In this document: in pieces, positions 22,811-45,192 of the stretch
How positions within the stretch are numbered: the first letter of the stretch is position 1
Layout: every line of letters starts with the position of its first letter
Assembly (NCBI GenBank): GCA_943350875.1
Contig: CALRAL010000001.1
Span: 4,829-68,828 of the forward strand
Source of the DNA: Candidatus Nomurabacteria bacterium
GTDB lineage: Bacteria; Patescibacteriota; Minisyncoccia; Phycocordibacterales; UBA9973
DNA: 64,000 bases
Direction of reading: 5' to 3'
Made by a program: the position numbers and the translations under genes
The notes under the pieces: model-generated
The model's input: the letters and a program-made list of their open reading frames with translations, nothing else
Databases searched by the model: none
What the model was told of the DNA's origin: nothing

Positions 22811-22882
22811 GCCGTCGTAGCTTAGTGGTAAAGCACTGACTTGGTAAGTCAGAGACCATGGGTCCGATCCCCATCGACGGCT
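22811..22882 (+). tRNA. tRNA-Thr (GGT)
   Basis: GCCGTCG-TA-GCTT-AGTGGTA-AAGC-A-CTGAC-TTGGTAA-GTCAG-...-CGACGGC-T. Confidence 0.8.
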
Positions 22883-22889
22883 CTCGTTT

Positions 22890-24811: not shown

Positions 24812-25130
24812 TTTTGGAGTGTCTTTACGATTCCGCTCGAACTTACTTTATCAAAAATTCCTGAGAATATCCACAAGCGTTCCCCGCGCGCTAAAGCGCC
24901 ACCACGCGAAGCGTGGTGCTTCTGCTGAAGCAGAAGTGCGGGAAACGCTCTGCACCTCGCCACTAATGTTTTTCAAACGAGGCGAGGTGCAGAAATGCGG
25001 AACGCGAGCGAAATTTTGCGAAATGCTGGGGGTGTGGGGGAAAGTATTTCGCAAAAATTCGCTCGCGTACTTCCTGATTTTTTTTGGCAAATTAATTTTT
25101 TTGAATTTTTGCTCTCAGAGTTTTGAGCCT
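24812..25130. repeat. Inverted repeat C, left copy (~320 bp); partner at 28270-28602
   Basis: The reverse complement of 28270-28602 aligns along its full length with a few indels. The substitutions are compensatory within hairpins (CCACGCGAAGCGTGG vs CTGTGCGAAGCACAG; CTGCACCTCGCC...GGCGAGGTGCAG vs CTGCACTCCGCC...GGCGGAGTGCAG). Confidence 0.8.
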
Positions 25131-25355
25131 ACAATAAAAAAGTAAAATATGTTATAGTATATTTGCTGACAGATAAATATATTTAGAGCATTCATTGATG
25201 GTTTTTCCGTCAATCGCGTCCAATATTGGCATCCCAATATGAGGAAACACGATTGACGGTGAATGCCGTTTATCTGTCAGCACCTCTTTGTTGGGGTGCC
25301 TATTTTGTTTTTAGGTATCCAATACAAAGATTTTATAAATATAAATCTTAATAAA

Positions 25356-26189: not shown

Positions 26190-26199
26190 TTAGAAATTT

Positions 26200-27153
26200 A
26201 TGGCTTTACATAATTTAACATTGGGAATCCCTGTAAGAAATGAATCATTAAACTTAAAACAATTTATTAATTCTTTAAACATTTCTGTCGATTATTTACA
26301 AAATATCTACAAAGATATCAAGATTGAAATTATAGTTTGCATAAATGGCTCTACGGACAATTCAGAAAATATTATAAAAAATGAAATAATTGCCTCACAT
26401 TTAGACGTCCATCTAATTTTTAGCTCGGAGGGTAAATTAAATGCAATCGATGCTATTTTAAATTCTAAAAAATACAATGATCTAATTGGATTTATTGATG
26501 CAGATACTTTACTTGAGGTGTCGGCAATTTATGAATTGTATGCAGAAATTGTAGATAACAAAAATTTATTTGCAGTGTATTCAAATATGACCCCTAGGGG
26601 TAATGATAGTTTTATTTATAGAATACAGAAAAGCCATTATGATTCACGTTTCTCAAATACGAGAGGATATATTCACGGAAGATTTTACATTTTAAAAAAT
26701 GCTGATTTATTAAAAGTTGAAAGAATAAAAAGAAATAATAAAAAATGGATTTTAGAATACGGTCCGTTAGTTGATGATATATATCTTTCAAGGGTAATTG
26801 TAGCGACTTATGGAGTTGGCGCCATAAAAGAAGTTGAAAAATCAATTATTTATTTTAAACCACCGCAAAATCTAATAGATTTTTTCTTTGGTTATCGTAG
26901 AATTATTATTGAGCTCAAAAGATTATCTTTTTTATATCCCGAACATAATTTTATTCAGAAAAAATATTTTTCAAAAAATAGGTATGGGTTTAAAAAATAT
27001 AAAAATTATGAACAAAAATTTTTATATTTAATTTATCAAATAATTGTTCATTTCATTAAACTGATTGTCGGTTTGGAAATATTATTAATTAATTTTAAAA
27101 TTATAAAATTAAAACATGTCTGGAAAACAACACACTCAACAAAAGTTATTTAA
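26200..27153 (+). CDS. Family-2 glycosyltransferase
   Basis: LTLGIPVRNESLNLKQFINSL...IVCINGSTDNSENII...GFIDADTLLE (GT2 DxD motif). Confidence 0.6.
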   Translation: MALHNLTLGIPVRNESLNLKQFINSLNISVDYLQNIYKDIKIEIIVCINGSTDNSENIIKNEIIASHLDVHLIFSSEGKLNAIDAILNSKKYNDLIGFIDADTLLEVSAIYELYAEIVDNKNLFAVYSNMTPRGNDSFIYRIQKSHYDSRFSNTRGYIHGRFYILKNADLLKVERIKRNNKKWILEYGPLVDDIYLSRVIVATYGVGAIKEVEKSIIYFKPPQNLIDFFFGYRRIIIELKRLSFLYPEHNFIQKKYFSKNRYGFKKYKNYEQKFLYLIYQIIVHFIKLIVGLEILLINFKIIKLKHVWKTTHSTKVI

Positions 27154-27154
27154 T

Positions 27155-27733
27155 ATGGACAAATATTCCAAGTTAAATTTAGCATGTGGCCCAAAGGTAA
27201 AAAATAAATTTAAATTACCTTGGCTAAATGTTGATATCGATGGAAAAGCAGCTGATTTTATCTGTGATATAATGGTATTACAGAAAGAATGGAGTGGTAA
27301 ATTTGAAGAAGTTAGGGCTTCTCATGTATTAGAGCATATTTTTTTAGACGATGTGCCAAAAGTTTTATCCGAATGGATACGAGTATTAAAACCAAACGGC
27401 GTGTTAAGAATCATAGTTCCTGATCTTGATATTGTAATTGAGTCTTTAAACAGTGGTATTGATCAGAAAAAAAGGAAATCTTTATCGGTCGATACTACTA
27501 CCCCGATTTTATCTCAAATTTATGGATGGGGTTATTGGACAAAAAATACAAAAAAGGAATGGAGACACAGAATGATATATAATGAGAAACTTATTATTAA
27601 GATTTTGAAAAATCAGAAAAAATTAAAAAATATAAAAACCTACAAACAAGATCAAGATCCAGCATTTATATTCAAAATAAAAGATGATTCACAAAATATT
27701 TTTTCTTTATGTGTCCAAGCTCAAAAAAAGTAA
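27155..27733 (+). CDS. SAM-dependent methyltransferase (class I)
   Basis: LNLACGPKV...LNVDIDGKAADFICD...LKPNGVLRIIVPD resembles methyltransf_11/23-type motifs I, II and post-II. Confidence 0.5.
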   Translation: MDKYSKLNLACGPKVKNKFKLPWLNVDIDGKAADFICDIMVLQKEWSGKFEEVRASHVLEHIFLDDVPKVLSEWIRVLKPNGVLRIIVPDLDIVIESLNSGIDQKKRKSLSVDTTTPILSQIYGWGYWTKNTKKEWRHRMIYNEKLIIKILKNQKKLKNIKTYKQDQDPAFIFKIKDDSQNIFSLCVQAQKK

Positions 27734-27775
27734 AGTCGATTATATTTATTAGTATTAATAGTTTAAAATAAAATT

Positions 27776-28261
27776 ATGGAACAACCAATGGATAATAAAA
27801 TGAGTAGCAAAATAGAATCAACTAATTTAAAAATTGAATTTGTAAATTTAACTTTAGGAATTGAACCCTCTAATATTGAGACTTCCCACATAAGTGCCAT
27901 ATTTCTAGTTGGCATAAAAGACGGGATGATACTCGCTGCAAGAAATGAAAGAGGGTGGGATATCCCAGGAGGTCACGTAGATGCTGATGATACAGATTTG
28001 TATTCTGCATTAGTACGAGAAGTAGATGAAGAATCAGGTGTAACACTCAAAAAAGCTAAGCCTTTTGCTATCATGAGATTTGATGGAAAAGATAAATCAA
28101 TGCTGTTTTATGTATCCGATGCTTTTGAATTAGAAGAGTTTATACCAAAGGAAGATGCGTTTGAAAGACAAATGATGCCCATTCCAGAATTTATAGAAAA
28201 ATATAATTGGAAGAAAAACGTAATTCAACCAATAATTGAATATGCTATTCAAAATAAATAA
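27776..28261 (+). CDS. Nudix hydrolase
   Basis: Nudix box GGHVDADDTDLYSALVREVDEESGV (Gx5Ex7REVxEExG). Confidence 0.75.
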   Translation: MEQPMDNKMSSKIESTNLKIEFVNLTLGIEPSNIETSHISAIFLVGIKDGMILAARNERGWDIPGGHVDADDTDLYSALVREVDEESGVTLKKAKPFAIMRFDGKDKSMLFYVSDAFELEEFIPKEDAFERQMMPIPEFIEKYNWKKNVIQPIIEYAIQNK

Positions 28262-28269
28262 GAATTTAA

Positions 28270-28602
28270 ATTAAAGTATTTACTCCTCTCAAAACTCTGA
28301 GAGCAAAAATTCAAAAAAATTAATTTGCCAAAAAAAATCAAGAAGCACGCGAAGCGAATTTTGCGAAATACTTTCCCCCAAACCCCCAGCATTTCGCAAA
28401 ATTTCGCTCGCGTTCCGCATTTCTGCACTCCGCCTCCTTTGCCCCCAAAACATTGTGGCGGAGTGCAGAGCATTCTCCCGCACTTCTGCTTCAGCAGAAG
28501 CTCTGTGCTTCGCACAGAGGCGCTTCAGCGCGCGGGGAACGCTTGTGGATATTCTCACGAATTTTTGATAAAGTAAGTTCGAGCGGAATCGTAAAGACAC
28601 TC
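28270..28602. repeat. Inverted repeat C, right copy; ends exactly at the prfB ATG
   Basis: See 24812-25130; ...CGTAAAGACACTC|ATG. Confidence 0.8.
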
Positions 28603-29484
28603 ATGGAAAAAGAAGAAATACAAAATAAAATAGGTACATTAGAAAAGGAAATGACAAGTCCAGATTTTTGGAATGATAAAATAAAAGCGCAAAATATCAT
28701 AAAAGAAATTGCTGAATTAAAGTCAAAGAAAGAGGGTTTTGGAAAATATGATAAAGGGAATGCAATCATCACTATTATCTCTGGCGCAGGAGGGGATGAT
28801 TCTGAAGATTTTGCAAATATGTTGCTCCAAATGTATGTGAAATATGCTGGGAAAAAAGGCTGGGGTGTTTCTTTCATTCATGAAAATAAAAATGAACATG
28901 GTGGTTATAAAAATGTATCTTTTGAAATAGAGGGAAAGGGCGCTTATGGGAATTTAAAAAACGAAGGAGGAGTGCATCGTCTCGTACGTATTTCTCCTTT
29001 TAATGCTAAAAAATTACGTCATACTTCTTTTGCACTGGTTGAGGTTTTGCCAAAATTCTCAAAACTCGAAGAGAAGGATTTTGTGATTCCAGAAGCGGAT
29101 TTGAAAATAGAATTTGCTCGCTCCGGTGGTCCTGGCGGGCAAAATGTGAACAAGAGAGAGACTGCAGTTAGAGTGGTGCATATTCCAAGTGGTATAGCTG
29201 TGCATGCTTCAAATGAGCGTTCGCAAGAGCAGAATAGGGAGCGAGCAATGGCAATCCTGCGGGCTAAAATATTCAAAAAAGCTGAACAAGATAAAAAAAC
29301 AATAGAAGAAAGTCTAAAATTAACTAAAAATACTCAGATAGAGTGGGGGAATCAGATTCGTTCGTATGTTTTGCACCCGTATAAAATGGTGAAAGACCAT
29401 AGGACAGAAGCAGAGACTTCCAATGTTGACGAAGTCCTCGCTGGCGATTTAGAACTATTCATTGAAGCGGAGAAAAATTTGTAA
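28603..29484 (+). CDS. prfB: Peptide chain release factor 2 (SPF motif), apparently without a programmed +1 frameshift and with a short N-terminus
   Basis: RISPFNAKK (SPF tripeptide anticodon), GGQNVNKRETAVR (GGQ). The single ORF runs from MEKEEIQ with no CUU-UGA-type shift site. The upstream in-frame extension belongs to the repeat. Confidence 0.8.
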   Translation: MEKEEIQNKIGTLEKEMTSPDFWNDKIKAQNIIKEIAELKSKKEGFGKYDKGNAIITIISGAGGDDSEDFANMLLQMYVKYAGKKGWGVSFIHENKNEHGGYKNVSFEIEGKGAYGNLKNEGGVHRLVRISPFNAKKLRHTSFALVEVLPKFSKLEEKDFVIPEADLKIEFARSGGPGGQNVNKRETAVRVVHIPSGIAVHASNERSQEQNRERAMAILRAKIFKKAEQDKKTIEESLKLTKNTQIEWGNQIRSYVLHPYKMVKDHRTEAETSNVDEVLAGDLELFIEAEKNL

Positions 29485-29503
29485 TTGTGATACAATTAGT
29501 AGT

Positions 29504-30286
29504 ATGAACCCTTGGATACAGCTAAGTATTGATTACGCAAATCAGAGAAGTTATTTGGATGATCTTTTTAAAGTTTATCCAACTATACCAGATGGTATAC
29601 GCGAAATTAATGAAGAACTTTGGAAAAATATAGAAAACTCCTTCAAAAGTAAAAACAATAAAAACTTAATTGAAAATTTAGTTAAGTTAGATTTATTTCC
29701 TATCAAAGATTCCTATGTTGCTTATTTAAAGAAAGATAAAACAGCTTCTCTAAGAAATCCAAAAACAATATCAAGATTAGCAGGGCGTTTATATGAAATG
29801 GGTTTGAATACTATCTATGAACGTTGTTCAGAGCCAAAAGAAACAAATAGACAAATTGGTCCGTTGTTTCGTCGTTGGTTGAGTAGCAAATCTTTAGGTG
29901 TTCCATACTTGGAATCTACAGAATTTTTAGCTACAAAAGAAAATGCTGTGCTAGATGCAGGTGATGCAGAAATGATGACTTTTGCTAAAAAACATTTTAA
30001 TTATAAACACAATAAAGGGTTAGATTTTATTGCTCGTTTTAATGGTAAATATGTAATTGGGGAAGCGAAATTCTTGACTGACTTTGGTGGACATCAAAAT
30101 GCCCAATTTAATGATGCTATTTCTACAATAAAAACTAAGCATGTAAATGCAGTTAAAATAGCTATTTTAGATGGAGTTCTTTATATTAAAGGAAATAATA
30201 AAATGTATAGAAGTATTACGACAAAATATAAAAAAGAAAATATAATGAGTAGTCTTGTATTACGTGAATTTCTTTATCAACTTTAA
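29504..30286 (+). CDS. Putative Type II restriction endonuclease (PD-(D/E)xK)
   Basis: GLDFIARFNGKYVIGEAKF (D...E-A-K); directly upstream of and co-oriented with a DNA methyltransferase; start trimmed to MNPWIQL. Confidence 0.5.
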   Translation: MNPWIQLSIDYANQRSYLDDLFKVYPTIPDGIREINEELWKNIENSFKSKNNKNLIENLVKLDLFPIKDSYVAYLKKDKTASLRNPKTISRLAGRLYEMGLNTIYERCSEPKETNRQIGPLFRRWLSSKSLGVPYLESTEFLATKENAVLDAGDAEMMTFAKKHFNYKHNKGLDFIARFNGKYVIGEAKFLTDFGGHQNAQFNDAISTIKTKHVNAVKIAILDGVLYIKGNNKMYRSITTKYKKENIMSSLVLREFLYQL

Positions 30287-30294
30287 ATTTTTAT

Positions 30295-31521
30295 ATGTTT
30301 ATAACATACAAAAACAAAAAAGAAGAATTTGAGATCTTAAATACTCCAAAAGCGAGCCTAGAAATTATTTCAGGGAAAGGTTCAAAAAATAAACTTATTC
30401 AAGGTGATAATTTAAGTATTCTTCAGTCTTTAATGAAAGATTATAATTTGAAAGGAAAAATTGATTTGATTTATATTGATCCGCCTTTTGCCACCAATAC
30501 TGATTTTAAAATAGGAGATAGAACAAGTACTATCAGTAGTAGCAATCTTGATGAAATTGCGTATAGCGATACATTAATTGGGGATGATTTTTTGGAGTTT
30601 TTAAGAGAGAGATTAATTTTGCTTCGTGAATTATTGTCAGAAAGAGGCTCTATTTATTTACATATTGATTATAAAATTGGTCATTATGTAAAATTGATAA
30701 TGGATGAAGTTTTTGGAGTAAAAAACTTTCGTAATGATATAACCAGAATTAAATGCAACCCAAAAAATTTTCATAGAAAAGCATATGGCAATGTGAAAGA
30801 TATGATACTTTTTTATACAAAAAATGGAAATCCTATTTGGAATGATCCTCGTGTTGCTTTTTCGAATGAAGACGAAGAACGGTTATTTAAAAAAACTGAT
30901 AAAGATGGAAGAAAATACACAACAATACCATTACATGCTCCAGGAGAAACAACAAAGGGAAATACGGGTAAAGAATGGCGTGGTGTTAAACCACCAAAAG
31001 GACGGCATTGGAGAACCGACCCAAAAATTCTTGAAGAATGGGACAAAGAAGGTTTGATTGAGTGGTCAAAAAATGATGTTCCAAGAAAAAAAATTTATAT
31101 TGATGAAAGGGATGGTAAAAAAACACAAGATATTTGGGAGTTTAAAGATCCGCAATATCCCAATTATCCAACCGAAAAAAATCTTAATCTGCTTAAATTT
31201 ATTATTTCCGCTTCATCTAATAAAGATAGTATTGTTTTAGATTGTTTTTGTGGTTCAGGTACAACATTAATAGGTGCACAAGAATTGGATAGGAATTGGA
31301 TAGGAATAGATCAGTCAGAACAAGCAATAAAAGTTATAAAAGAACGCTTAAATAAAATACAAAATGGTTTTTTTTCAAAAAAAGATTATGAATTTATTAT
31401 AGAAGGTAAAGAATTAATACATCCAAAATATACAATAGAAGATATGGTAAAAGGTATTACAAAGAAAAATAGACACAAGGAAGTTGATTGGGGGCCTCCA
31501 AGAGGTAAAGAAGTATGGTAG
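30295..31521 (+). CDS. DNA methyltransferase, beta-class (N6-adenine or N4-cytosine)
   Basis: IYIDPPFATNTDF (DPPF motif IV) N-terminal; LDCFCGSGTTLIGAQELDRNWIGID (motif I) C-terminal. Confidence 0.75.
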   Translation: MFITYKNKKEEFEILNTPKASLEIISGKGSKNKLIQGDNLSILQSLMKDYNLKGKIDLIYIDPPFATNTDFKIGDRTSTISSSNLDEIAYSDTLIGDDFLEFLRERLILLRELLSERGSIYLHIDYKIGHYVKLIMDEVFGVKNFRNDITRIKCNPKNFHRKAYGNVKDMILFYTKNGNPIWNDPRVAFSNEDEERLFKKTDKDGRKYTTIPLHAPGETTKGNTGKEWRGVKPPKGRHWRTDPKILEEWDKEGLIEWSKNDVPRKKIYIDERDGKKTQDIWEFKDPQYPNYPTEKNLNLLKFIISASSNKDSIVLDCFCGSGTTLIGAQELDRNWIGIDQSEQAIKVIKERLNKIQNGFFSKKDYEFIIEGKELIHPKYTIEDMVKGITKKNRHKEVDWGPPRGKEVW

Positions 31522-34914: not shown

Positions 34915-35517
34915 TTAAGAAAGTTTTTGTTTACGTTTTCGAATTAGGGAAACGATAAACATTGCAACAAGGGTGCCTATGGCAGCCATGGCCATATCTT
35001 TTGGTGTATCAAAGATGTCTCCTTGTGAACCATAGAATGAAGTAGCGAGGACTGGGTTCACAGTCTCGGCGGCGAGCCATTCAAATATCTCATATATTGC
35101 AGAGAAGGCGAGGATGGTTTCCATTGGTACATAATAACTCCAACCATTCTCTACTTTCTTTATATTTATTACAAATTCATGTACTGGGTAAAAAAATAAA
35201 AATCCAAACATAAAATGCGTGAATCTATCATACATATTTCTCGTAGATCCTAAGAATTCCCCCAAGCCATTTCCAAAAGGTACGCCTGTCACTCCATAAT
35301 GCGAAGTTACGAGTGGTAGGAGTAGGTATGCCACTATGAGGGTGAGAGATAAATTTGATATTTGGAGACGTTTTCCGAATATGCCAAAAAATATCAGCCC
35401 CACAAATATCGGGCTGTTCTCAAGCCACCAGTCTGACTGTGATGCCGGGGGGCGTATGCCTGACCATATAAGGACCACAACGAAAACTATCAGTAAAAAC
35501 CATTTATACTTGCTCAT
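34915..35517 (-). CDS. Integral membrane protein (DUF2238/YjdF-like)
   Basis: 200 aa, ~5 TM; family assignment tentative. Confidence 0.45.
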   Translation of the reverse strand: MSKYKWFLLIVFVVVLIWSGIRPPASQSDWWLENSPIFVGLIFFGIFGKRLQISNLSLTLIVAYLLLPLVTSHYGVTGVPFGNGLGEFLGSTRNMYDRFTHFMFGFLFFYPVHEFVINIKKVENGWSYYVPMETILAFSAIYEIFEWLAAETVNPVLATSFYGSQGDIFDTPKDMAMAAIGTLVAMFIVSLIRKRKQKLS

Positions 35518-35555
35518 TTATAAAATAAATCTTAACTCTTTTTTTATCCAAATTC

Positions 35556-35760
35556 AAGACAAAATGTTGATAAAAAAGACGTGCTGTGTCTCTTGAATAA
35601 AATCCGAACTTTTTTCCAAAACAATCCGGATGCTGACTAATACCGACCAGCGCCTCGCAAAGCCTCGGCGCTCCGCCCTCGCCCCATTCCGCCTTTCATT
35701 CTAATTTTTTTCGCGGGGGGATTCTTTTTGAAATTGTATGGGCGGAAACGGGGCTCGGTC
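35556..35760. repeat. Inverted repeat D, left copy (~200 bp, GC-rich); partner at 43195-43382
   Basis: The reverse complement of 43195-43382 is essentially identical (TGCTGTGTCTCTTGAATAAAATCCGAAC...CGCCTCGCAAAGCCTCGGCG...CGCGGGGGGATTC...GGCTCGGTCGGGC). Confidence 0.8.
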
Positions 35761-36207
35761 GGGCTTCTTCTAAGGAAGAAGCGGTCGGTAAATACGTGGT
35801 GTCTCGGACATTATACTATTTTTGATCGTCCGTGACCAAAGGAGTCCATCCTCGGCATTCGCCTCGGACATTTCCGCTAGGGCTACTCGCGCCTAGATGT
35901 CTAGGTTTGGCGCGTTTCCTCGCTCTACGGCACTGTGGTGCCGGAGCTCGGGCGCCAGCAGTTTGGGGGAAGGAAGGAATCCTTCCCCCAGCTTCGCCTC
36001 GTCTCGGCAGGGCTCGACCAACCGGCTCAGCCAACCCCCATCCTCGTTTTCATATCCGAGTATTTCTCAAGATTTTAGATTATCCTTTGTTTATATCGTC
36101 GGCGCTCATCCTTTAGCCACGGACGCCCGTCGCGGAAATGTCCGAGGCTCAAATTCGTATTGCACACTTGACCCACCCTCCCGTTCGCGTGTGCGCAAAA
36201 CCCCGCT
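35761..36207. ncRNA. GC-rich ~450-bp non-coding island with many nested hairpins; candidate structured RNA of unknown class
   Basis: Much more GC-rich than surrounding CDSs (as are the rRNA and tRNAs here). Long-range inverted pair CGCCTCGGACATTTCCGC (35858) / GCGGAAATGTCCGAGG (36128); perfect 9-bp stem GGGGGAAGG-AAGGAAT-CCTTCCCCC; a TTGGTC-N18-TATAAT-like promoter on the minus strand near 35800-35830. The ORFs here are Arg/Pro/Ala-rich and look spurious. Confidence 0.4.
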
Positions 36208-36240
36208 CGCAAGGACGAGAGGCGTGCGAGCGGGGCTCCC
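36208..36240 (-). terminator. Rho-independent terminator for the minus-strand operon (11-bp stem CCCCGCTCGCA...TGCGAGCGGGG, then a T-tract on the minus strand)
   Basis: Seen directly after the stop of the nuclease gene. Confidence 0.65.
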
Positions 36241-36990
36241 TTAATTTTCTAAAACTTTTCTTGCGTTCCAGTATGCACACCAATCACAATGCTCACCAGA
36301 TTTTGGTATCACATCACTTTCTAAACATTTTTTAATTTCAAACAAAGTTTTTTCAACCCAAGAATCATCGCCTTTGTGTTCAATCAAATTGACATCAAAA
36401 TCAATTCGTTTATCAAATGCTTGTCTATCCATTTTTCCAGTGCAATATACAAAATAACCAATATCAGAGACCTTTAGCCCATTCTGCCTCAAAAGCCACT
36501 GATACACCTCCATTTGGCGTTTATAGCCATCTTGCCACTCTTTATCCAGCGCTTTAACAGCTTCATCCTTTGCAGTGGCTTTATAATCCACGACAATATA
36601 CTCGTCTTTTCCGTTGATCCACAAATCATCAATCGCACCAGTTACCAAAAGTCCAGTCGGCTCATGCAAATATCTAATACCACCAAAATTTCTTCGCCAT
36701 TCATCAAGCTCTTTGTGAGACATTGGTCGTGCGTCAATTCCATATTCTTTTTGTAGTGGGTGCTGTTCGTTTTTTGTACGGTATGAATCAAATTCTTGTT
36801 TAAGAAGATAATCAACCGCACTATTGATAGAAAACGGAAATCCGGGTACTCGTTTTACACCAAGTTTGTTATCAATGTAAAAACATCGTGGACACTCTTT
36901 AAACAAATCAATTTTAGAACGAGAAAGTTTCCAGTTCTTTCCGCCATAATTCCACCCATCACCTCTATTTGCTTTATAGTATTCAGACAT
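36241..36990 (-). CDS. Cas4/RecB-like PD-(D/E)xK nuclease with four Cys (CxxC...CxxC), putative Fe-S cluster
   Basis: N-terminal CPRC, core GAIDDLWING...DEYIVVDYKATAK (D...E-x-x-x-D-Y-K), C-terminal HCDWC. Confidence 0.65.
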   Translation of the reverse strand: MSEYYKANRGDGWNYGGKNWKLSRSKIDLFKECPRCFYIDNKLGVKRVPGFPFSINSAVDYLLKQEFDSYRTKNEQHPLQKEYGIDARPMSHKELDEWRRNFGGIRYLHEPTGLLVTGAIDDLWINGKDEYIVVDYKATAKDEAVKALDKEWQDGYKRQMEVYQWLLRQNGLKVSDIGYFVYCTGKMDRQAFDKRIDFDVNLIEHKGDDSWVEKTLFEIKKCLESDVIPKSGEHCDWCAYWNARKVLEN

Positions 36991-36999
36991 AAAATTTTG

Positions 37000-38502
37000 T
37001 TAATTATAATATGAGTCAAACACTTGCACCTCCTTTTTGCTAATAAGAGTCTTCGTTTTGCCGATTTTTGCCTTATCAATATATGACCTATCCTCGATTG
37101 ATTTTTTAATCACTGCATCATCAATCCAATCTGTAACAAAGATATTTTGCGCTTCACCATCTACGGCTTTACACAATTTCTCATTAAGCGATAGTTTAAA
37201 TTTCAAACCAATCGACATTCTCTGTATCCAAATTTCAATTAGTCCAGTATTTGAAAGATTACAAATCTTATTCTGAATTTTTAGAAGTAGTTCTTTTTTA
37301 GATTTTATTGTTAGTTTTGATATACAACTCGATACTAAACCAGCGATCACGGGAAAAGCGTTTGGATTGTTATAAGCAATATCAATAAGCAAACTTGTTA
37401 TCAGTTTTTGTTGATTATAAAAATCTTTGTCATTAACCGCATCGAGAATTTTAGACAGTCTATTTTTAAGAGTTCCTGAATTTGGATGCCACTTTCCAAT
37501 TTGTTGGACAATCATTAACTGCCGGAGTAATTCTTTTTTTGATAATTTTTTAGGAACGGCTTCAAATTTAAGAGCCTCTATCTTGTCGGGTTTTATTGAG
37601 CCTGTAACAACATCGTCGCAAGAATATGTTTTATTAGTATTTAGACGGAAACCGAATCCTATCAGTGTTTCGCTTAGACATTTTAGAATTATATCTCCAT
37701 CCATTGTATCATTCGTGAAAATTCTATAATCATCTCGATACCGAAGTATGTGAAATTTTTTATCTTTCAACGTAGTATTAAGTTTGTTTGATAATTCAGT
37801 ATCAGCATAACCTAGGACTATCTCTGCTATAAAATCCATCAAAATACTTCCTTGTGGTATTCCATTAGTTTGACCATAAGACATTGCTTGAACATGGTGA
37901 TCAATTTTATTTCCAAATAAGTCTGCATATTTTTGCTTTTTCTTTGATTCTTCTTTTGTATGAATAGCCCAAGGTATTGAGTGCGTATAAATAGAGCCAT
38001 AACAATCAGTAATATCAGTCTGATATAAAAACTTATATTCCAAAGCTAGAGTTACAGATTTCTTTTCTACATTATTAACCCATTGCGAAATTTGAGATGC
38101 TCTTTGTTTAGATTTATATCTTGGCAATACAGGAATACTTTCGCATTCGATATTTTTATCACCTTGAAATTCTTTAAATCTATCTTGTAAAGATTTCCAG
38201 TTATCTTTCTGTGTGATTACATTTACTAGAGAAACATACAACAACGGGTTTATAATTTCATATTTTCTCCAAGCATATTTTCCATCCTTATTACCATATA
38301 AGATATGATTAACTGTTTCGTATTTTTTCGCTTTTTTAAGATCGTCAAATGTGAGTTCTTTATCTTTAAAATTCTTTGTAATAACAGAAAGTAATTTACT
38401 AAATGAAAAATAGGGTGGCAATTCTATATTAGAAAAGGATTCTTGGTTTATAAAGAATTTTTTTGCATCTGTTGGGTTTAAATTTAAGACATTTTTTGAC
38501 AT
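37000..38502 (-). CDS. Reverse transcriptase of the Abi/UG (defence-associated) type with an alpha-helical C-terminal extension
   Basis: RT motifs QTDITDCYGSIYTHSI (motif 2), NGIPQGSILMDFIAEIVL (motif 4, PQG), HILRYRDDYRIF (YxDD variant), LIGFGFRLNTNKT (motifs 6/7). About 180 aa N-terminal and ~200 aa helical C-terminal regions, with no maturase/En domains. Confidence 0.7.
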   Translation of the reverse strand: MSKNVLNLNPTDAKKFFINQESFSNIELPPYFSFSKLLSVITKNFKDKELTFDDLKKAKKYETVNHILYGNKDGKYAWRKYEIINPLLYVSLVNVITQKDNWKSLQDRFKEFQGDKNIECESIPVLPRYKSKQRASQISQWVNNVEKKSVTLALEYKFLYQTDITDCYGSIYTHSIPWAIHTKEESKKKQKYADLFGNKIDHHVQAMSYGQTNGIPQGSILMDFIAEIVLGYADTELSNKLNTTLKDKKFHILRYRDDYRIFTNDTMDGDIILKCLSETLIGFGFRLNTNKTYSCDDVVTGSIKPDKIEALKFEAVPKKLSKKELLRQLMIVQQIGKWHPNSGTLKNRLSKILDAVNDKDFYNQQKLITSLLIDIAYNNPNAFPVIAGLVSSCISKLTIKSKKELLLKIQNKICNLSNTGLIEIWIQRMSIGLKFKLSLNEKLCKAVDGEAQNIFVTDWIDDAVIKKSIEDRSYIDKAKIGKTKTLISKKEVQVFDSYYN

Positions 38503-38527
38503 ATTCTTTAGTAAACATGGAACGGAA

Positions 38528-40435
38528 CTATCTCCATAAATCTAAAATCGTATTCCTAAGCAAAACATCCTCTTTATTTAGATTGTTTCTTAATTTCTCT
38601 ACTTCATCGTACTTTTTCACTATTTTTATTTGTTCTGAAATTGATGGTAGTGGAATATATATTTTTTCCAATAAATCAGGCGGTGTTAGATATTTTCTAT
38701 TTGTTGATCCAGATGAAGCATTTGCCACTATAGACTCAAAGTCGCCTGATGAAATCACAAGATTAAGAAATTTTGGCAAGATTAAGTCAGTGTTTAATTT
38801 TGCGGTAGCCATGTTCGAAGTCACAACACAATCAGAATAATCTTTAGTTATTAATCCGAATCCACCAGATTTTGTATCAACCTTACACCAGAACAAAGAA
38901 TCATTTTTAACCGGTCTATATTTTAGAGTTTTCTTTAATTCTTTTCCCTTTACAACTTTAGAAATAAAACATCCTTTACCATGCGACCGCACTCCAAGAA
39001 CTTTATATTCCTTTTCATCGACAAGTGATATGGGTTTCTCATTATAAAATGATAGTACTTTTGATAATTTTACAAAATCATCATTTTCAGCATTATGATT
39101 TTTCAAGTATTCATTAGCTAACAGCTTTGATTGTTTACTTAGTAAAATACTTTCTTTTTTAACTATATGAAATACTAAATTGGTTTTGTGTGCTAGTTTA
39201 TAACTTCCTAAAATTGATTTCTTGATTTCATCTAGCAATTCTACACATAATGGTAAATCATTTTTTTCAAATTCTTTTCTTTGTAACCCCAAATCATAGC
39301 CGTCATTTTGAATATCGATAAAATACACAGAATCACTCTTTTTTGAAATCTCTTTATCAAAAAAGAGTATATTTGTTTTGTTGTCTGCGTAAGGATTAAA
39401 AACTCCTGAGGGAAGTGAGATTACAGCCCACAACCAATTATCTTTAACCAATTTTGTTCTAAGAGATCTAAAAGAGCTTTGGGTGTTAAATACTACTCCT
39501 TCAGGAACGATTACTCCGCCTCTACCGTTAATCCCTAAATGTTCTAACATATAATCAACAAAAAGAACTTCCGCTTTATTTGCTTGAACAGAAAATCTTT
39601 TGTGTGGCTTGATTCCGCCTGTTGGTGTCATAAAGGGAGGATTTGCCATTATTACATCGTACATTTCGTCCCACTTCTCATCGCTTGAAAGTGTGTCGTA
39701 TTCAAAAATTTTAGGCTCGGCGAAACCATGCAAATACATATTTACTTTTGAAAGTTTTACCATGTCAGGAGAAATATCATAGCCGACTAAATTATTCATC
39801 AATTTTTCTTTTTCGTCGGGGGTAAGTGGCTTGTCTTTTTGTTGTTTGAGAATATGTTTGTATGCAGAAATTAAAAATCCAGCCGTACCGCAAGCAGGAT
39901 CTAAAATTTTATCTCCTTTCTTTGGGTCTACTACCTCGGCTATAAAATCAATAATGTGGCGTGGTGTGCGAAATTGTCCTGCATCGCCTTGAGAGCCGAG
40001 AATAGAGAGTAAATATTCAAAAGCATTTCCTAAATCTTCGCTGTGGTCATAAGTAAAACCGTTAATTTCTTTCAAAAACAAAGTTAAAGTTTCGGGACTT
40101 CGGTATGGAAGAAAGGCATCTTTGAAAATATCTCGGAATAATTGTGGGATGTGTGGATTTTGAGACATTTTAGCAACGGCTTCGCCATAAAGCTCTAAAC
40201 GCTCATGTCCACCGAGTTTTTGGTCAAGTAATTTCGTCCACGCATATTTTTCAAAACCTTTTGTGAAAAATCTTGCTTTTCCGCCAAGTTCAATCGCTTC
40301 TTTATCCATATCGTCCATAAACTTGTAAATCAAAGCCGTTGTGATTTGTTCAACTTGGGCTTTTGGGTCGGGGACTTTGCCGACAAGAATATTGCGGGCA
40401 GAGTCAATTTTTCGTTTTGTTTCTTGAGTAAGCAT
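38528..40435 (-). CDS. N6-adenine DNA methyltransferase fused to a single target-recognition domain (M-S fusion)
   Basis: Motif I ILDPACGTAGFLIS; motif IV MANPPF; C-terminal TRD ending in the HsdS-type conserved block IYIPLPSISEQIKIVKKYDEVEKL. Confidence 0.8.
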   Translation of the reverse strand: MLTQETKRKIDSARNILVGKVPDPKAQVEQITTALIYKFMDDMDKEAIELGGKARFFTKGFEKYAWTKLLDQKLGGHERLELYGEAVAKMSQNPHIPQLFRDIFKDAFLPYRSPETLTLFLKEINGFTYDHSEDLGNAFEYLLSILGSQGDAGQFRTPRHIIDFIAEVVDPKKGDKILDPACGTAGFLISAYKHILKQQKDKPLTPDEKEKLMNNLVGYDISPDMVKLSKVNMYLHGFAEPKIFEYDTLSSDEKWDEMYDVIMANPPFMTPTGGIKPHKRFSVQANKAEVLFVDYMLEHLGINGRGGVIVPEGVVFNTQSSFRSLRTKLVKDNWLWAVISLPSGVFNPYADNKTNILFFDKEISKKSDSVYFIDIQNDGYDLGLQRKEFEKNDLPLCVELLDEIKKSILGSYKLAHKTNLVFHIVKKESILLSKQSKLLANEYLKNHNAENDDFVKLSKVLSFYNEKPISLVDEKEYKVLGVRSHGKGCFISKVVKGKELKKTLKYRPVKNDSLFWCKVDTKSGGFGLITKDYSDCVVTSNMATAKLNTDLILPKFLNLVISSGDFESIVANASSGSTNRKYLTPPDLLEKIYIPLPSISEQIKIVKKYDEVEKLRNNLNKEDVLLRNTILDLWR

Positions 40436-40438
40436 AAT

Positions 40439-42925
40439 TTACATATAAGTATTTACGGACACATAATCTTTGACATATTCCGGTATCACTTCACGAAAGC
40501 CGTTTAGCTCTTTGAAATCTCCCATTGATACTTTTGGATTTGTAGCAAAACGACCATATTCTTTTGATTCCACAATCTCACGAATTTCATTGTCGGTTAT
40601 GTATGCCTTTAGGAAATTTTTGATTGGATAGTAATATTTGCTATCGGGTTTGTAGATAGAGATAAACTTTTCAAATTCTTCTTCCAAAAGCTCATCTTTA
40701 TTTTTGAATTTATCAAGGCGACCAAAAATTTTGTCTATGACTTCTCGTAGGGAAATGCGACGATCAACTTTTGCTGATTTTCGGAGTTTTTCAAGGTTGT
40801 AAAATTCCTGCGGTTTATCGAAAATCTCCGTTTTTACATATTCCTCAACGGCTTGCATATCGCCCTGTTCATATTTCTCTTTGATAAATGAATCAGCTTT
40901 GATTGTGTCCTCAAATTTCTCAAAGAGTTTCCTATCAACTTTCATTCCCTCAACGCCTACGGCTTTTTCGTTGAAAGTTTTAAGTGGGTCAGGAGTTCCA
41001 ATAATTATTTCGTCAATATCAACTCCTCCGCCACCTGTACCACCAGTTCCAATTTTTGGTATTTTTAGAATCTCGTCATAGTTAAACTTTTCCTCAAAAT
41101 ATTCGCAGTTTGCAAAGAAATCAAAAAGCTTGAATTTGTCTTTTTCGGTATTATTTTTGTCGCCATCGTTTTCAAACGAAAAAACATATTTTCTTGTACC
41201 ACGCCCTTTGATCTGAATGAAATCTGTCGGCGAGAAAATCGGGCGCATAAGTCCGAGGTTTAATATATTTTGGCAGTCATAGCCAGTAGTCATCATCCCG
41301 ACAGTTACGCAAACTCTCGTTTTACTTGATTTATACCCATCGAGCCATTTTGTATGTCCGTTGAGATTATCATTTGAAAAATTGATTGTGAATTGCTGGG
41401 CGTCGCTGATATTTGAAGTAACTTGAACGGCAAAATCGGAATTGTATTTATTCGGGTAGTGCTTATCAGCTAATTGGTTAAGTATTTGCGTAATTTTTGT
41501 CGCATGGTTTTGACTAACGCAATAAATAATACTTTTACCAATTTCTCCACTCACTGGATCAACAAGAGCATTTTTGAGAAAAGTTTCGCAAAAAATCGTG
41601 TTTGTCTTATCCGAGAAAAATTTCCTTTCAAAATCCTTTTGGTAAAAAGTTTGTTCCTCTTTTCCTTCCTCCGTATCAACAAGCAGAGAATATCCCTCAT
41701 CAGATAAAAGCTGTGTTGTTATTTCTGTTCGAGCGTCAGCAACGATAGGATTTACCAAAAATCCCTCTTTCACACCATCTAACAAGCTGTAACGGAAAGT
41801 TGGCTCACCGTTTTCGCAACCAAAAGTAGTGTATGTATCAAGAAGTTGCCGACGCTCCCAAGCTCGCGGGTCTTTTTCGCCTAATTTTACAGGGTCAATG
41901 CCTTTGAGATAATTTTTCGGTGTTGCTGTAAGTCCCAGTTTATACCCAACAAAGTATTCAAAAACCGCTCTGCTATTTCCGCCGATTGATCGGTGCGCTT
42001 CGTCTGAAATAATAAGGTCAAAATCTGTCGGAGAGAAAAGTTTTTGATATTTATCAGAAATGCTTTGAATCGTGGTAACGACAATTTCTGCCTTTCGCCA
42101 ATCATCACGATTTTCTTTATATATCACAGTCGTATAATCTTTTGAAAGCCACTTTTTGAAATTTTTTGCCGCCTGATCTTCAAGCTCTATGCGGTCTACT
42201 AAAAACAATACTCTTTTCGCGTTTCCTGTTTTAAGAAATAATTTTATAACGGCGGCACAAGTAAGGGTTTTACCTGTTCCAGTCGCCATTTCAAAAAGAT
42301 AACGATCTTTTCCACTACTAGCCCAGCCCTGTAATGCCTCAATCGCTTTCAACTGGTACGGACGCAGAAATTTTAGGTCGTATTCTTTTACAAGTTCAGA
42401 TTTCTTGTCGTCGTTCCATCGTGGGTCTTTTTGATAACTAGGATTTTGTGTTAGTGCGATATAATCGGCAGTCAATTTTTCGTCCGCAAGTTTTTTCGGG
42501 TCTGGTTTGAATGCTTCAAAATGCTTCAGAGATTCCTGTGTTGGGAAAACTGTAATTATTTGTGGATTACCTCGCTCCAAATCCCAAAAATAATGTATAT
42601 TGCCATTTGAAAGAATTATAAAACGAACATTGAGCGATTGAGCATATCGACGAGCCTGTTCTTTTCCGTTCAGAGGGTCTTTCTCTTCTGATTTCGCCTC
42701 CAAAACTAAATACGGGAAACCTTTTTCGTCGAGCAAGAGAAAATCGACAAAGCCATCTTTCGTTTTATCAAAATCATTACCAAGCTCATCAACGGCATTT
42801 TTTGTCAGCTTCACATTGTTTTCTAGAGCAATGTTTGCTGTGCCTTTTTCATCGTCAAAAAATCTCCAGTTGGATTCTTGAAGTAAATTATTGATTTTGA
42901 TTCTGGCTTTGGCTTCTTTTTGCAT
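40439..42925 (-). CDS. Restriction subunit: N-terminal Mrr/PD-(D/E)xK nuclease plus SF2 helicase-like ATPase (HsdR / Type ISP-like)
   Basis: VDFLLLDEKGFPYLVLEAKSEEK nuclease motif; Walker A MATGTGKT; DEAH-box LIISDEAHRS; 828 aa. Confidence 0.8.
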   Translation of the reverse strand: MQKEAKARIKINNLLQESNWRFFDDEKGTANIALENNVKLTKNAVDELGNDFDKTKDGFVDFLLLDEKGFPYLVLEAKSEEKDPLNGKEQARRYAQSLNVRFIILSNGNIHYFWDLERGNPQIITVFPTQESLKHFEAFKPDPKKLADEKLTADYIALTQNPSYQKDPRWNDDKKSELVKEYDLKFLRPYQLKAIEALQGWASSGKDRYLFEMATGTGKTLTCAAVIKLFLKTGNAKRVLFLVDRIELEDQAAKNFKKWLSKDYTTVIYKENRDDWRKAEIVVTTIQSISDKYQKLFSPTDFDLIISDEAHRSIGGNSRAVFEYFVGYKLGLTATPKNYLKGIDPVKLGEKDPRAWERRQLLDTYTTFGCENGEPTFRYSLLDGVKEGFLVNPIVADARTEITTQLLSDEGYSLLVDTEEGKEEQTFYQKDFERKFFSDKTNTIFCETFLKNALVDPVSGEIGKSIIYCVSQNHATKITQILNQLADKHYPNKYNSDFAVQVTSNISDAQQFTINFSNDNLNGHTKWLDGYKSSKTRVCVTVGMMTTGYDCQNILNLGLMRPIFSPTDFIQIKGRGTRKYVFSFENDGDKNNTEKDKFKLFDFFANCEYFEEKFNYDEILKIPKIGTGGTGGGGVDIDEIIIGTPDPLKTFNEKAVGVEGMKVDRKLFEKFEDTIKADSFIKEKYEQGDMQAVEEYVKTEIFDKPQEFYNLEKLRKSAKVDRRISLREVIDKIFGRLDKFKNKDELLEEEFEKFISIYKPDSKYYYPIKNFLKAYITDNEIREIVESKEYGRFATNPKVSMGDFKELNGFREVIPEYVKDYVSVNTYM

Positions 42926-42931
42926 AAAAAT

Positions 42932-43219
42932 TTATTTCAAAAGTTCGCTACTGGAAATCCCCAACGCATTAGCAATCTTTTCCAAGGTGGAAAGAGTGGG
43001 GTTCATACGACCATTCTCAATATTGCTAATATATGCTCTATCCACACTCAAAGCGGTCGCAAGGTCTCCTTGCGACATATTCTTTTTCAGACGCCATTTT
43101 CTAAGGTTTTCACCTAATTTCTTGCCAGATGACATATTTTGTATTTTATTCTCACTTGCATCATATTGCAATCGTGTAATATAATGCACATAGCCCGACC
43201 GAGCCCCGTTTCCGCCCAT
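42932..43219 (-). CDS. XRE-family HTH transcriptional regulator (putative controller of the defence operon)
   Basis: LRKWRLKKNMSQGDLATALSVDRAYISNIENGRMNPTLSTLEKIANALGISSSEL. Confidence 0.75.
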   Translation of the reverse strand: MGGNGARSGYVHYITRLQYDASENKIQNMSSGKKLGENLRKWRLKKNMSQGDLATALSVDRAYISNIENGRMNPTLSTLEKIANALGISSSELLK

Positions 43220-43382
43220 ACAATTTCAAAAAGAATCCCCCCGCGAAAAAAATTAGAATGAAAGGCGGAATGGGGCGAGGGCGGAGCGCCGAGGCTTTGC
43301 GAGGCGCTGGTCGGTATTAGTCAGCATCCGGATTGTTTTGGAAAAAAGTTCGGATTTTATTCAAGAGACACAGCCCTGAATG
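43195..43382. repeat. Inverted repeat D, right copy
   Basis: See 35556-35760; abuts the recombinase-element inverted repeat at 43371. Confidence 0.8.
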
Positions 43383-45068
43383 CAAATCGCCGTTTTCGCC
43401 AAAATGCGGAGCGTCGCAAAGCGACGCGACCGGAGTTTCCGCCAGAATTCGCCAAGGGTTTTTGAAATCCAAAAGGAGCGAGCGGGACGCGAGGCGGGGG
43501 TTCTCTGTTCTCCGAACAGTCAAAACAAAGTTTTGTGAGCCAATCTTGAAGCGATAATTATCAATATTTAACATAAACCTTTTTCTATGAACAAATTCTT
43601 TCTCTACGCTAGAAAATCTACCGACGAGCCCGATCGTCAGATTTTGAGTATTGAAGCGCAGATTGACGAGTTGAAAGAATTTGCCACGCGAGAGCAGTTA
43701 GAGATTCTTGAAACTTTTATTGAATCACAGACCGCTAAAGAGCCGGGTAGACCTATTTTCAACAATATGCTCTCGCTCATAGAAAAAGGAAAAGCGTCGG
43801 GAATTTTAGCTTGGCACCCCGATAGATTAGCGAGAAATAGTATTGATGGCGGAAAGATAATCTATCTGTGCGACCTTGGCAAAATTAAAGAGCTAAAATT
43901 CCCGACCTTTTGGTTTGATGCTACGCCACAAGGTAAGTTTATGTTAAATATTGCTTTTGGGCAGAGCAAATACTATGTAGATAATCTTTCAGAGAATGTA
44001 AAGCGTGGACTTCGACAAAAAGTAAGACGAGGCGAACAAAGTGGTCAAGCTCCGACAGGATATTTGAATGACAAACTAAACAAGAAAATTATTCCCGACC
44101 CTGAAAGATTTCGCCTCGTCAGGAAAATGTTCGAAGTCTACGCTACTGGAAATTATTCTCTGAAAGAAACAAGGAATTTGCTCGCCCAAAAGGGCTTGGT
44201 GTCTAAAAATGGTAAAGTTCTCACTATTTCAAACACACAAATGATATTGAAAAATCCTTTTTACTACGGAATGTTTTTATTTAATCGAGAACTTTACCAA
44301 GGAAAGCACGAGCCAGCGATTTCAAAGAAACTTTTTGATAAGTGCGCAGAGGTATCGGCGAGGAACGCTCACCCAACAAAGCGAGGAATTATCAAACACA
44401 CTTTTCGCGGAATATTTTTTTGCGGAGAATGTGGCTGTGGTATCACCAGCGAAATACAAAAAGGTCATACCTATTATCGTTGCACCAAAAAGAAAGGTGT
44501 TTGCACACAAAAATATATCCGCGAAGAATTCCTCGCCGAACGAGTAAATGAGACTATCAAAAAGGTTTCTTTGCCGTCCGAGTGGAAAGAATTCATGCTC
44601 GCTGAACTAGATAAGGAGCAAGCGAGCAGTTTCCACTCTGACGAGCTTTTCGTTCAAAATTTGAAAAATCAAATCAAAAGTGTTGAGGAGACGCTGGACA
44701 GGCTTCTTGACGCTCATTTGGACAGCACAATTACGAGCGATGAGTATATCGCCAAAAAGCAAAAGCTCCTCAACCAGAAAATTGATTTTTCAGAGAAATT
44801 GAAAGATTTTGAACGAAAAGGCAATCGCTGGCTCGAACTTTCTAAACAATTTATTTTAGACAGCAACCAAGCCTTAATTATCGCTTCCGAAGAAAATCTC
44901 GAAGCCAAAAGAGATTTTCTTAAAAAGATTGGCTCGAACCCCCGCCTCGCGTCCCGCTCGCTCCTTTTGGATTTCAAAAACCCTTGGCGAATTCTGGCGG
45001 AAACTCCGGTCGCGTCGCTTTGCGACGCTCCGCATTTTGGCGAAAACGGCGATTTGCATTCAGGGCTG
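43371..45068 (+). mobile_element. Serine-recombinase element 2: recombinase gene bounded by perfect ~133-bp terminal inverted repeats (43371-43503 / 44936-45068)
   Basis: The reverse complement of 44936-45068 equals 43371-43503 (CAGCCCTGAATGCAAATCGCCG...GCGTCGCAAAGCGACGCGACC...GAGGCGGGGGTTC). The outer end overlaps the 3' end of tRNA-Gln. Shares the GCGTCGCAAAGCGACGC hairpin core with element 1. Confidence 0.75.
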
Positions 45069-45125
45069 CGGGTCAGGGACTCGAACCCCAATACCATCCT
45101 CCAGAGGGATGTGTCCTACCGTTAG
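43587..45125 (+). CDS. Large serine recombinase, paralogue of the 22901-24493 gene
   Basis: FLYARKSTDEPDRQILSIEAQIDELKEF...AWHPDRLARNSIDGG...NPFYYG...CGECGCG...YYRCTKKKGVC. The C-terminus reads through the TIR and the antisense tRNA, so the true end is uncertain. Confidence 0.8.
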   Translation: MNKFFLYARKSTDEPDRQILSIEAQIDELKEFATREQLEILETFIESQTAKEPGRPIFNNMLSLIEKGKASGILAWHPDRLARNSIDGGKIIYLCDLGKIKELKFPTFWFDATPQGKFMLNIAFGQSKYYVDNLSENVKRGLRQKVRRGEQSGQAPTGYLNDKLNKKIIPDPERFRLVRKMFEVYATGNYSLKETRNLLAQKGLVSKNGKVLTISNTQMILKNPFYYGMFLFNRELYQGKHEPAISKKLFDKCAEVSARNAHPTKRGIIKHTFRGIFFCGECGCGITSEIQKGHTYYRCTKKKGVCTQKYIREEFLAERVNETIKKVSLPSEWKEFMLAELDKEQASSFHSDELFVQNLKNQIKSVEETLDRLLDAHLDSTITSDEYIAKKQKLLNQKIDFSEKLKDFERKGNRWLELSKQFILDSNQALIIASEENLEAKRDFLKKIGSNPRLASRSLLLDFKNPWRILAETPVASLCDAPHFGENGDLHSGLRVRDSNPNTILQRDVSYR

Positions 45126-45135
45126 ACGAACCCGC
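45067..45135 (-). tRNA. tRNA-Gln (CTG)
   Basis: Minus-strand GCGGGTT-CG-TCTAACGGTAGGACA-CATCC-CTCTGGA-GGATG-GTAT-TGGGG-TTCGAGT-CCCTG-ACCCGC-A. Short D-arm; moderate confidence. Confidence 0.6.
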
Positions 45136-45192
45136 AATATAATGATAGAATAATACAATAATAGTTTTTAATCAAATAGTTTTAAATTCATT

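Follow-up and report, generated by a model that had tools for sequence, protein, structure and literature searches.

A repeat-bracketed defence operon in a Patescibacteria chromosome is probably the cargo module of a bipartite serine-recombinase island at a tRNA-Gln gene

A stretch of 64,000 nt from Candidatus Nomurabacteria (assembly GCA_943350875.1, contig CALRAL010000001.1, positions 4,829 to 68,828; hereafter the window) contains an operon of predicted defence genes enclosed by long inverted repeats, which raises the question of whether this segment is a mobile element in its own right or part of something larger. The window is a piece of low-GC (~33%) chromosome of the Patescibacteria, or candidate phyla radiation (CPR), with a 16S rRNA gene at 59158-60777. 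In an initial annotation, made from the sequence alone, the segment was regarded as a self-contained 7.8-kb island with its own two ends. The comparisons described here point instead to a bipartite integrative island of 9.5 kb (35583-45068), in which the segment is one module of two and which was probably placed at the 3' end of tRNA-Gln(CTG) by a large serine recombinase (LSR).

The cargo-flanking repeats had been placed at 35556-35760 and 43195-43382 and called near-perfect; the inverted repeat is real and in fact perfect, with coordinates that were off by up to 27 nt. An inverted-repeat search delimits two arms of 183 nt, 100% complementary and with 7426 nt between them (Table 1), and a chance origin of a 183-nt exact inverted match in 64 kb is impossible. 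The GC content of the arm is 52%, against ~33% in the surrounding chromosome. Here the cargo-flanking arms are named c and c', the LSR-flanking arms a and a', and the core O. Arms a and a', each 133 nt long and again 100% complementary, bracket the LSR gene. The right-hand cargo repeat abuts the repeat of the recombinase element, as had been noted, and the two pairs overlap in 4 nt, CAGC. The complement of this core, GCTG, stands at both outer ends of the island (35583-35586 and 45065-45068), and the core matches the last bases of tRNA-Gln, within the 3' end of which the outer a arm terminates at 45068. Read from the tRNA, the order is thus tRNA, O-a-(LSR)-a'-O'-c'-(cargo)-c-O, chromosome.

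If both ends of the island were joined, a c-O-a junction would form, and the middle site, a'O'c', is exactly its reverse complement. It looks like an intact inverted attP-like copy kept inside the element, and the outer sites resemble attL and attR. The right cargo arm, taken initially for an island end, would accordingly be half of an internal attP-like junction, and the left arm the attR-side outer end. The suggestion that all of these repeats belong to one family of recombinase-recognised ends holds in part. The motif ATTTkTTTyGCGGGGGGATTC is common to the A and C arms at 19/21 positions and GCGTCGCAAAGCGACGC to the A and D arms at 17/17, which is consistent with recombinase-related ends, but the c and a arms are two different junction halves and not copies of one end.

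The recombinase fits the definition of an LSR (resolvase domain, recombinase domain and zinc beta-ribbon in ~450-550 aa) by its predicted domains, with PF00239 at 7e-22, PF07508 at 7e-14 and PF13408 at 4.1e-9, all over their gathering scores, and a YARKST motif. The last ~60 codons of its open frame run through the a arm and the antisense of the tRNA. Identity to phage LSRs does not exceed 29%, and the best NCBIfam similarities, to CcrB and XisF, are both far under their cut-offs. Close relatives all come from metagenome-assembled genomes (MAGs) of Patescibacteria; homologues at 91-96% amino acid identity can be found in MAGs labelled with many different lineages of this group, and more distant ones (~52-67%) target other tRNAs. 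No directionality factor is evident in the element.

To compare the arrangement across genomes, 80 LSR loci (L001-L080) were fetched from species-representative genomes. The LSR gene is bracketed by an inverted repeat of 85-170 nt in ~60 of these 80 loci, and in ~20 a second repeat pair abuts the first; an isolate, Schleiferia thermophila DSM 21410, is among the loci with both pairs. The bases common to the two pairs invariably correspond to the 3' end of the neighbouring tRNA gene, ranging from CAGC to CAGCCAA for tRNA-Gln and from CCGC to CACCGCCA for tRNA-Ser. A tRNA gene adjoins the LSR 3' arm in 62 loci, and the sequence beyond the outer c arm differs in every genome. The ends of these elements share a short core with a recurrent target, as is expected of an LSR island. 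This pattern bears on the idea that the cargo is an independent non-autonomous transposon with 183-nt terminal inverted repeats that landed beside an LSR gene. Published cases exist of restriction-modification (R-M) units that carry inverted repeats at their ends and are flanked by short target duplications (PMC2853133), but no direct target-site duplication surrounds 35583-43374, where the 4 flanking/core bases belong to the inverted symmetry, and the repeat search found no further copies of the cargo arms within the window. Moreover, the inner end always adjoins an LSR-flanking repeat with a tRNA-derived overlap, and the arrangement is conserved across LSR clades aiming at different tRNAs, which leaves a separate transposon extremely unlikely.

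Because long inverted repeats can trouble assembly, the origin of the contigs also has to be considered. Contigs of the window element and its relatives often break in the arms, and some metagenome contigs are palindromic (L105, L189), as might be seen if chimeric or palindromic joining had made the repeats. However, the same architecture recurs in dozens of independent assemblies produced with many different assemblers and in the isolate genome, and imperfect arms exist, including a pair at 92% with compensatory changes in a second element of the window. A sister-strain contig from another sample (L087, 99.7% identical overall) spans both arms and has the same module order and orientation as the window, and its c arms are imperfect, differing by three indels (8125-8304, compared with 43192-43374 of the window). 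An assembly artefact is effectively refuted. Exact-protein look-ups with the cytochrome-b5 gene, the DUF2238 gene and AbiP2 returned contigs that either carry the element in the same order or break ~140 nt into an arm, the latter being a break point that k=141 assembly graphs would produce. Several other contigs (L088, L091, L099, L129 and L142, among others) consist of exactly one repeat-bracketed cargo segment, with both contig ends lying ~k-1 bases inside the arms. Among same-species contigs, which are uninformative on inversion, no empty tRNA-Gln site was recovered by searching with either flanking gene; the predicted empty site, with the tRNA-Gln 3' end joined to the DUF2238 flank, would read ...ACCCGCAGC followed directly by ACGTCTTTTTTATC...

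The layout had been described as mirrored on the other side of the region, and this is borne out by an element at 22961-28602 with the same two-module plan at tRNA-Thr(CGT). Its repeats lie at 22961-23106 / 24674-24819 on the LSR side and at 24817-25127 / 28288-28602 around the cargo, with the core CTC/GAG at 22961-63, 24817-19 and 28600-02. The five long inverted-repeat pairs found by the repeat search all fall within 22-46 kb, and the rest of the window is without comparable ones. The left LSR (22901-24493) is 47% identical to the right one, and the left cargo is non-defence, with genes for a GT2 glycosyltransferase, a NUDIX hydrolase, a methyltransferase and a protein of unknown function. 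The c-type arms of this element measure 311-315 nt and are ~92% identical, the differences being fully compensatory hairpin substitutions, and one such arm folds far better than shuffled sequences (z = -8.0).

Another possibility is that the long repeats act while the element is single-stranded, during uptake or transfer: a would pair with a', and c' with c, so that a duplex att site is rebuilt, by analogy with CTX-phi attP and integron attC. In one strand, a'-O'-c' could indeed pair with both outer arms to form a continuous c-O-a duplex, and the strongly structured left-element arms, with their hairpin-preserving double substitutions, are in keeping with it. The right c arm alone, however, is not significantly structured (z = -1.5), and domain searches found no transfer or rolling-circle genes in the elements. 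Serine recombinases cut both strands of two duplexes, and to our knowledge no folded single-stranded DNA substrate or other precedent exists among them. A single-strand route is considered very unlikely.

The segments between the c arms can be seen to vary far more than the recombinase module. Cargo ranges from 1.3 to 9.7 kb and is unrelated among elements with LSRs >90% identical. R-M and other defence genes make up most of the cargo families. DNA methyltransferases are the commonest families among 67 cargo proteins, with single examples of the NgoPII, HinP1I, TdeIII, EcoO109I and MjaI endonucleases, AbiEii and GmrSD; AAA_15/21 ATPases and Schlafen-AlbA_2 domains are also included. In elements with near-identical LSRs, conservation of the c arm is confined to its outer 46-60 nt, and the inner GC-rich part is element-specific, yet usually identical between both arms of one element. 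This combination of variable cargo and conserved ends fits a conserved recombinase module joined to a swappable cargo slot. The defence genes of the window are accessory cargo in this sense, as had been proposed for everything between the arms; the GC-rich region beside them is not, being a conserved structured element that recurs beside many unrelated cargoes, though it is missing from most close relatives.

Beyond the bipartite island itself, a wider proposal is put forward tentatively. The Patescibacteria may harbour a widespread, undescribed class of LSR elements in which an excised circle carries two inverted attP-bearing repeats, integration is independent of orientation and mostly defence cargo is exchanged in cassette-like fashion, often accompanied at the edge of the cargo by a new structured RNA of ~350 nt, whose position relative to the recombinase gene changes with the excision or isomer state. 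In the mechanism proposed for the tRNA-Gln island itself, a circular form would be inserted at the tRNA end by the LSR through recombination of attP with attB, and excision between the outer sites would release a circle in which the ~312-bp c-O-a junction is present twice, in inverted orientation. Integration through either junction copy would yield two isomers, as are observed. Flipping or swapping of cargo by recombination would be made possible by the long identical arms together with the outer 46-60 nt conserved in the c arms, and arm-to-arm recombination would keep the long arms identical.

In three of the comparative loci, with LSRs 70-94% identical (L011, L019 and L039), the tRNA is found on the LSR 5' side instead, and in L019, which is fully resolved, both modules are inverted relative to the tRNA. 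The order in L019 fits integration via the other junction copy, and two successive inversions would give the same. A separate arrangement can be seen in L075 (9634-11569), where tRNA-Ser(GGA) together with arms occurs twice in inverted orientation, once on each side of the LSR gene (226 nt, 92%); this could have come about through cassette exchange, or if the internal att copy recombined with a further tRNA gene.

Inversion could also be the main purpose of the repeats. The segment would then be a phase-variable defence cassette, flipped by the LSR or by RecA acting on the 183-bp identity, so that the R-M/AbiP2 operon or the structured element is switched relative to outside promoters, with integration being secondary. 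A complete operon bracketed by long perfect inverted repeats is what such a cassette would look like, the cargo or the structured element is found in either orientation to the LSR when LSR clades are compared, and the perfect arm identity suggests ongoing exchange between arms. Flipping need not switch this operon, however, as it has its own controller protein and a promoter-like site just inside the arm. Cargo in related elements is nearly always transcribed away from the LSR, the close relatives having genes that are almost always divergent from it, and the two strains of the species share one orientation. The enzyme is a 512-aa integrase-type LSR and not a small invertase, and the repeats are 133-183 nt and not ~26 bp long. 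Nor would inversion alone explain the tRNA 3' end at the arm ends or the core common to three sites. An inversion cassette as the primary explanation is thus judged unlikely; an inversion switch as an additional property is possible.

Several observations weigh against the integrative island and its proposed mechanism. No empty attB was obtained, and all same-species contigs carry the element; the circle junction, being identical in sequence to the internal junction, is undetectable from contigs. We know of no LSR that requires or uses a second attP. The a-arm bases beside the core vary among elements with LSRs >90% identical, in which the c-arm end and the tRNA are conserved, and this is odd for an enzyme that should read both half-sites. 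The isomer argument consists of one fully resolved locus and two partial ones, and orientation differences in distant LSR clades are explained equally well by flipping through homologous recombination. Finally, the structured element is absent from most close relatives and is therefore not required for recombination. On balance, the assignment of the 7.8-kb segment to a bipartite LSR island at tRNA-Gln(CTG) is still regarded as likely.

The cargo of the window consists of a 475-nt GC-rich non-coding stretch and five minus-strand genes separated by gaps of 6, 3, 25 and 9 nt, in line with the single string with gaps of 26 bp or less described initially, and the gene names given then are supported by Pfam and PADLOC (Table 1). 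The open reading frame (ORF) of the XRE regulator begins within the repeat arm, and its true start is probably an internal Met near 43135, judging from the sequence. Predicted HsdR, HsdM and HsdS parts are encoded together, as in type I R-M systems. The HsdR-like protein matches NF046051 at 1.1e-66, under the cut-off, and the specificity part of the HsdM-S fusion has a weak Methylase_S match (E 0.0019, 18.9 bits against a 22-bit cut-off); because all NCBIfam equivalog scores fall under their cut-offs, this is a distant or atypical member of type I R-M. Residues 2-499 of the 500 in the reverse transcriptase align to positions 4-487 of 489 in the AbiP2 profile PDLC03744, with the C-terminal repeat region included. 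By this full-length profile match the enzyme is assigned to AbiP2, with a predicted role in defence; AbiP2 has been described as a stand-alone gene (PMC9226505). The product of the last gene in the string is by its predicted domain a Cas4-like PD-(D/E)XK nuclease only. A true Cas4 was considered and rejected, the TIGR00372 score being 29.7 bits against a cut-off of 65 and no cas gene being present among the island ORFs of at least 90 aa. The repeat listing of 22-46 kb also contains no CRISPR-like direct-repeat family. The complete cargo set of the window was met only within the same species.

A strong terminator had been placed at the end of the string, and a hairpin with a UUUUG tail is indeed found there; by its predicted fold it terminates the cargo operon on the minus strand, and it may also end a plus-strand RNA. 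A simple terminator scan missed this hairpin because its loop exceeds 8 nt. It is kept in two comparative loci (L022 and L005).

The GC-rich stretch beyond the terminator, immediately inside the c arm, was found to contain a conserved structured non-coding element. A 480-nt segment (35766-36245) comprising this element and the terminator hairpin folds with z = -5.2 on the plus and -6.4 on the minus strand against shuffled sequences. An invariant hairpin, GGGGGAAGGAAGGAATCCTTCCCCC, retrieved >120 metagenome loci, and a viral collection scanned with the element's hairpin gave 0 matches. In total, 79 distinct full-length homologues with 58-95% identity were aligned, a structure was derived from the alignment with RNAalifold and its pairs were then counted, the alignment being gappy and a direct consensus fold poor. 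Its 90 pairs have 91.8% of cells paired, compared with 36-47% in slid controls, and 225 double-sided changes were counted, compared with 86±7 in shuffles (0/500). Swaps of GC to CG and of AU to CG, in either direction, are clear in several helices. The ratio of G·U-type to A·C-type pairs is 638 to 161 on the plus strand, in favour of that strand, a count that is biased by the derivation of the structure. The element is probably an RNA read inward from the c arm, on the basis of this model, with the strand being tentative.

A window scan gave no Rfam 15 match at gathering level in 35766-36240, and an E-value scan of 35500-36320 against Rfam returned noise only (<=17 bits); the two scans rule out a known RNA family for the region. 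Neighbour genes are unrelated across 89 loci and mostly convergent, which rules out a partner RNA of the AbiP2 or Cas4-like gene. Of the 49 loci with room for an inverted-repeat arm, 35 have one directly upstream of the element, the partner arm following 3.8-11 kb downstream, and LSR homologues (25-91% identity) are present in 23 loci. Conversely, an nhmmer profile search of the 80 LSR loci found the element only in L014 and L022, and elements with LSRs >90% identical occur without it, so a guide or cofactor of the recombinase is also ruled out. A 3' untranslated region of the LSR transcript, formed on circularisation, would fit the window, L019, L146, L158, L190 and L200 but is contradicted by L125, L145 and L089, in which the element is on the LSR 5' side. 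The c arm of the window is not itself the RNA, lacking significant structure as given above. Position and orientation relative to the LSR differ between LSR clades, and cargo modules have therefore existed in both orientations in the course of evolution. By its distribution in these sequences, the element is an optional, widespread module of repeat-bracketed segments, possibly with a cis-acting or regulatory role as an RNA read inward from the arm.

Table 1. Features of the island and its tRNA target, in window coordinates
Feature	Coordinates	Strand	Evidence or remark
c arm, outer copy, attR side	35583..35765		First 4 nt GCTG, core common with tRNA end
Conserved structured non-coding element, ~350 nt	35838..36196	+ (tentative)	Fold, homologues, covariation
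GC-rich hairpin, 11-bp stem, between Cas4-like gene and structured element	36201..36235		UUUUG tail on minus strand; fold
PD-(D/E)XK nuclease, Cas4-like, four Cys (CPRC ... CDWC)	36241..36990	-	Pfam PDDEXK_1 7.8e-14; PADLOC Cas4 3.5e-9
AbiP2-type reverse transcriptase (UG/Abi class 1)	37000..38502	-	PADLOC AbiP2 6.1e-178; Pfam RVT_1
HsdM-S fusion: type I-like N6-adenine methyltransferase and specificity domain with single target recognition domain (TRD)	38528..40435	-	N6_Mtase 1.3e-53; PADLOC MTase_I 2.2e-96, Specificity_I 3.1e-31
HsdR-like nuclease-helicase (EcoAI/FtnUII-like type I R subunit)	40439..42925	-	ResIII 2e-39, HSDR_N_2, PADLOC REase_I 2.3e-56
XRE-family helix-turn-helix (HTH) protein, C-protein-like controller	42932..43219	-	HTH_3 3.8e-19; PADLOC Control_protein 1.4e-17
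c' arm, inner copy, half of internal attP-like junction	43192..43374		Repeat search
Core CAGC common to two repeat pairs	43371..43374		Complement at both element ends; same logic in ~20 other loci
a' arm, inner copy, upstream of LSR gene	43371..43503		Repeat search
Large serine recombinase	43587..45125	+	Resolvase, Recombinase, Zn_ribbon_recom domains; 512 aa as open frame
a arm, outer copy, attL side, adjoins tRNA	44936..45068		Repeat search
tRNA-Gln(CTG), integration target	45063..45137	-	3' end overlaps a-arm end

Further features were noted elsewhere in the window. A group I intron (Rfam, 78 bits) is found on the minus strand at 21303-21535, just upstream of a cluster of tRNA genes (Met, Asp, Thr and Thr) at 22340-22965. 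A Tsp45I-type restriction enzyme gene and an N6/N4 methyltransferase gene (29462-31521) lie in the 7-kb 'core' between both elements, beside prfB and ftsEX. The 16S rRNA gene is 1620 nt long and, compared with the bacterial model, has 35 inserted nt in its first hairpin; just downstream of it a 42-nt inverted repeat (61059-61100 / 62476-62517, 93%) surrounds ~1.4 kb. A GC-rich palindrome, CCCCTCTCCTT(GA/A)TAAGGAGAGGGG, occurs at 10105-10146, 10943-11006 and 11744-11790 in alternating orientation and with ~0.8 kb spacing, and resembles a repetitive extragenic palindromic (REP)-type element.

If the proposed mechanism is true, it would constitute a route for the movement of defence genes among ultra-small, host-dependent bacteria that are mostly without plasmids and classic transposons, the vehicle being a compact recombinase module at tRNA genes together with an exchangeable cargo slot between repeats. 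The second inverted attachment site would represent a new behaviour for LSRs, which are important genome-engineering tools, and the system would be a natural analogue of recombinase-mediated cassette exchange. The structured element joins a short list of big non-coding RNAs without assigned function, and the long inverted repeats explain the fragmentation of metagenome assemblies at these regions.

As in known LSR elements and prophages (phiC31, Bxb1 and A118; SCCmec Ccr; XisF; TnpX), the domain order of the recombinase and site-specific insertion with a short core shared by element and target junctions are seen here. The island differs from these in that insertion is at the very 3' end of tRNA genes, a second, inverted and intact attP-like junction is kept, and repeats of 85-400 bp bracket both the recombinase gene and the cargo. 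In the yeast 2-micron plasmid, which replicates, the recombinase is of the tyrosine type and FLP/FRT lies within inverted repeats of 599 bp. The circle proposed here would be similar in geometry to this plasmid and to the inverted-repeat flip-flop of plastids, with two long inverted repeats, two unique segments, a recombinase site in each repeat and two isomers expected. Unlike the 2-micron plasmid, the island encodes no replication genes and lives integrated, and its inversion is a possibility. The structured element, for its part, may be likened to ROOL, GOLLD, HEARO/omega RNA and the IS110 bridge RNA, being large, rich in GC, supported by covariation and placed where a mobile element ends, beside a recombination site. 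In contrast to these, it has no Rfam 15 match and a tentative strand and is absent from many elements with the same LSR, which argues against a recombination guide.

Among small cargo elements, tycheposons are found at tRNA genes in reduced genomes (bioRxiv 10.1101/2020.12.28.424599). They mostly use tyrosine recombinases, a minority using LSRs, and many carry replication genes; the text of that paper contains no inverted-repeat or internal att architecture, unlike the island described here (bioRxiv 10.1101/2020.12.28.424599). Furuta et al. (2010) described transposon-like R-M units with inverted repeats of 26-65 bp and 8-bp target duplications and, as a separate case, R-M genes with an integrase homologue inserted in a tRNA gene (PMC2853133). 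In contrast to the present island, their R-M units show no coupling with a serine recombinase or a shared tRNA-derived core (PMC2853133). LSR islands, tRNA-targeting cargo elements of streamlined genomes and inverted-repeat R-M units are each known. The literature searched holds no account, however, of recombinase and cargo modules that are both bracketed by repeats, have a tRNA-derived core in common and keep an inverted att copy between them, and relative to that literature this architecture appears to be a new form of LSR island.

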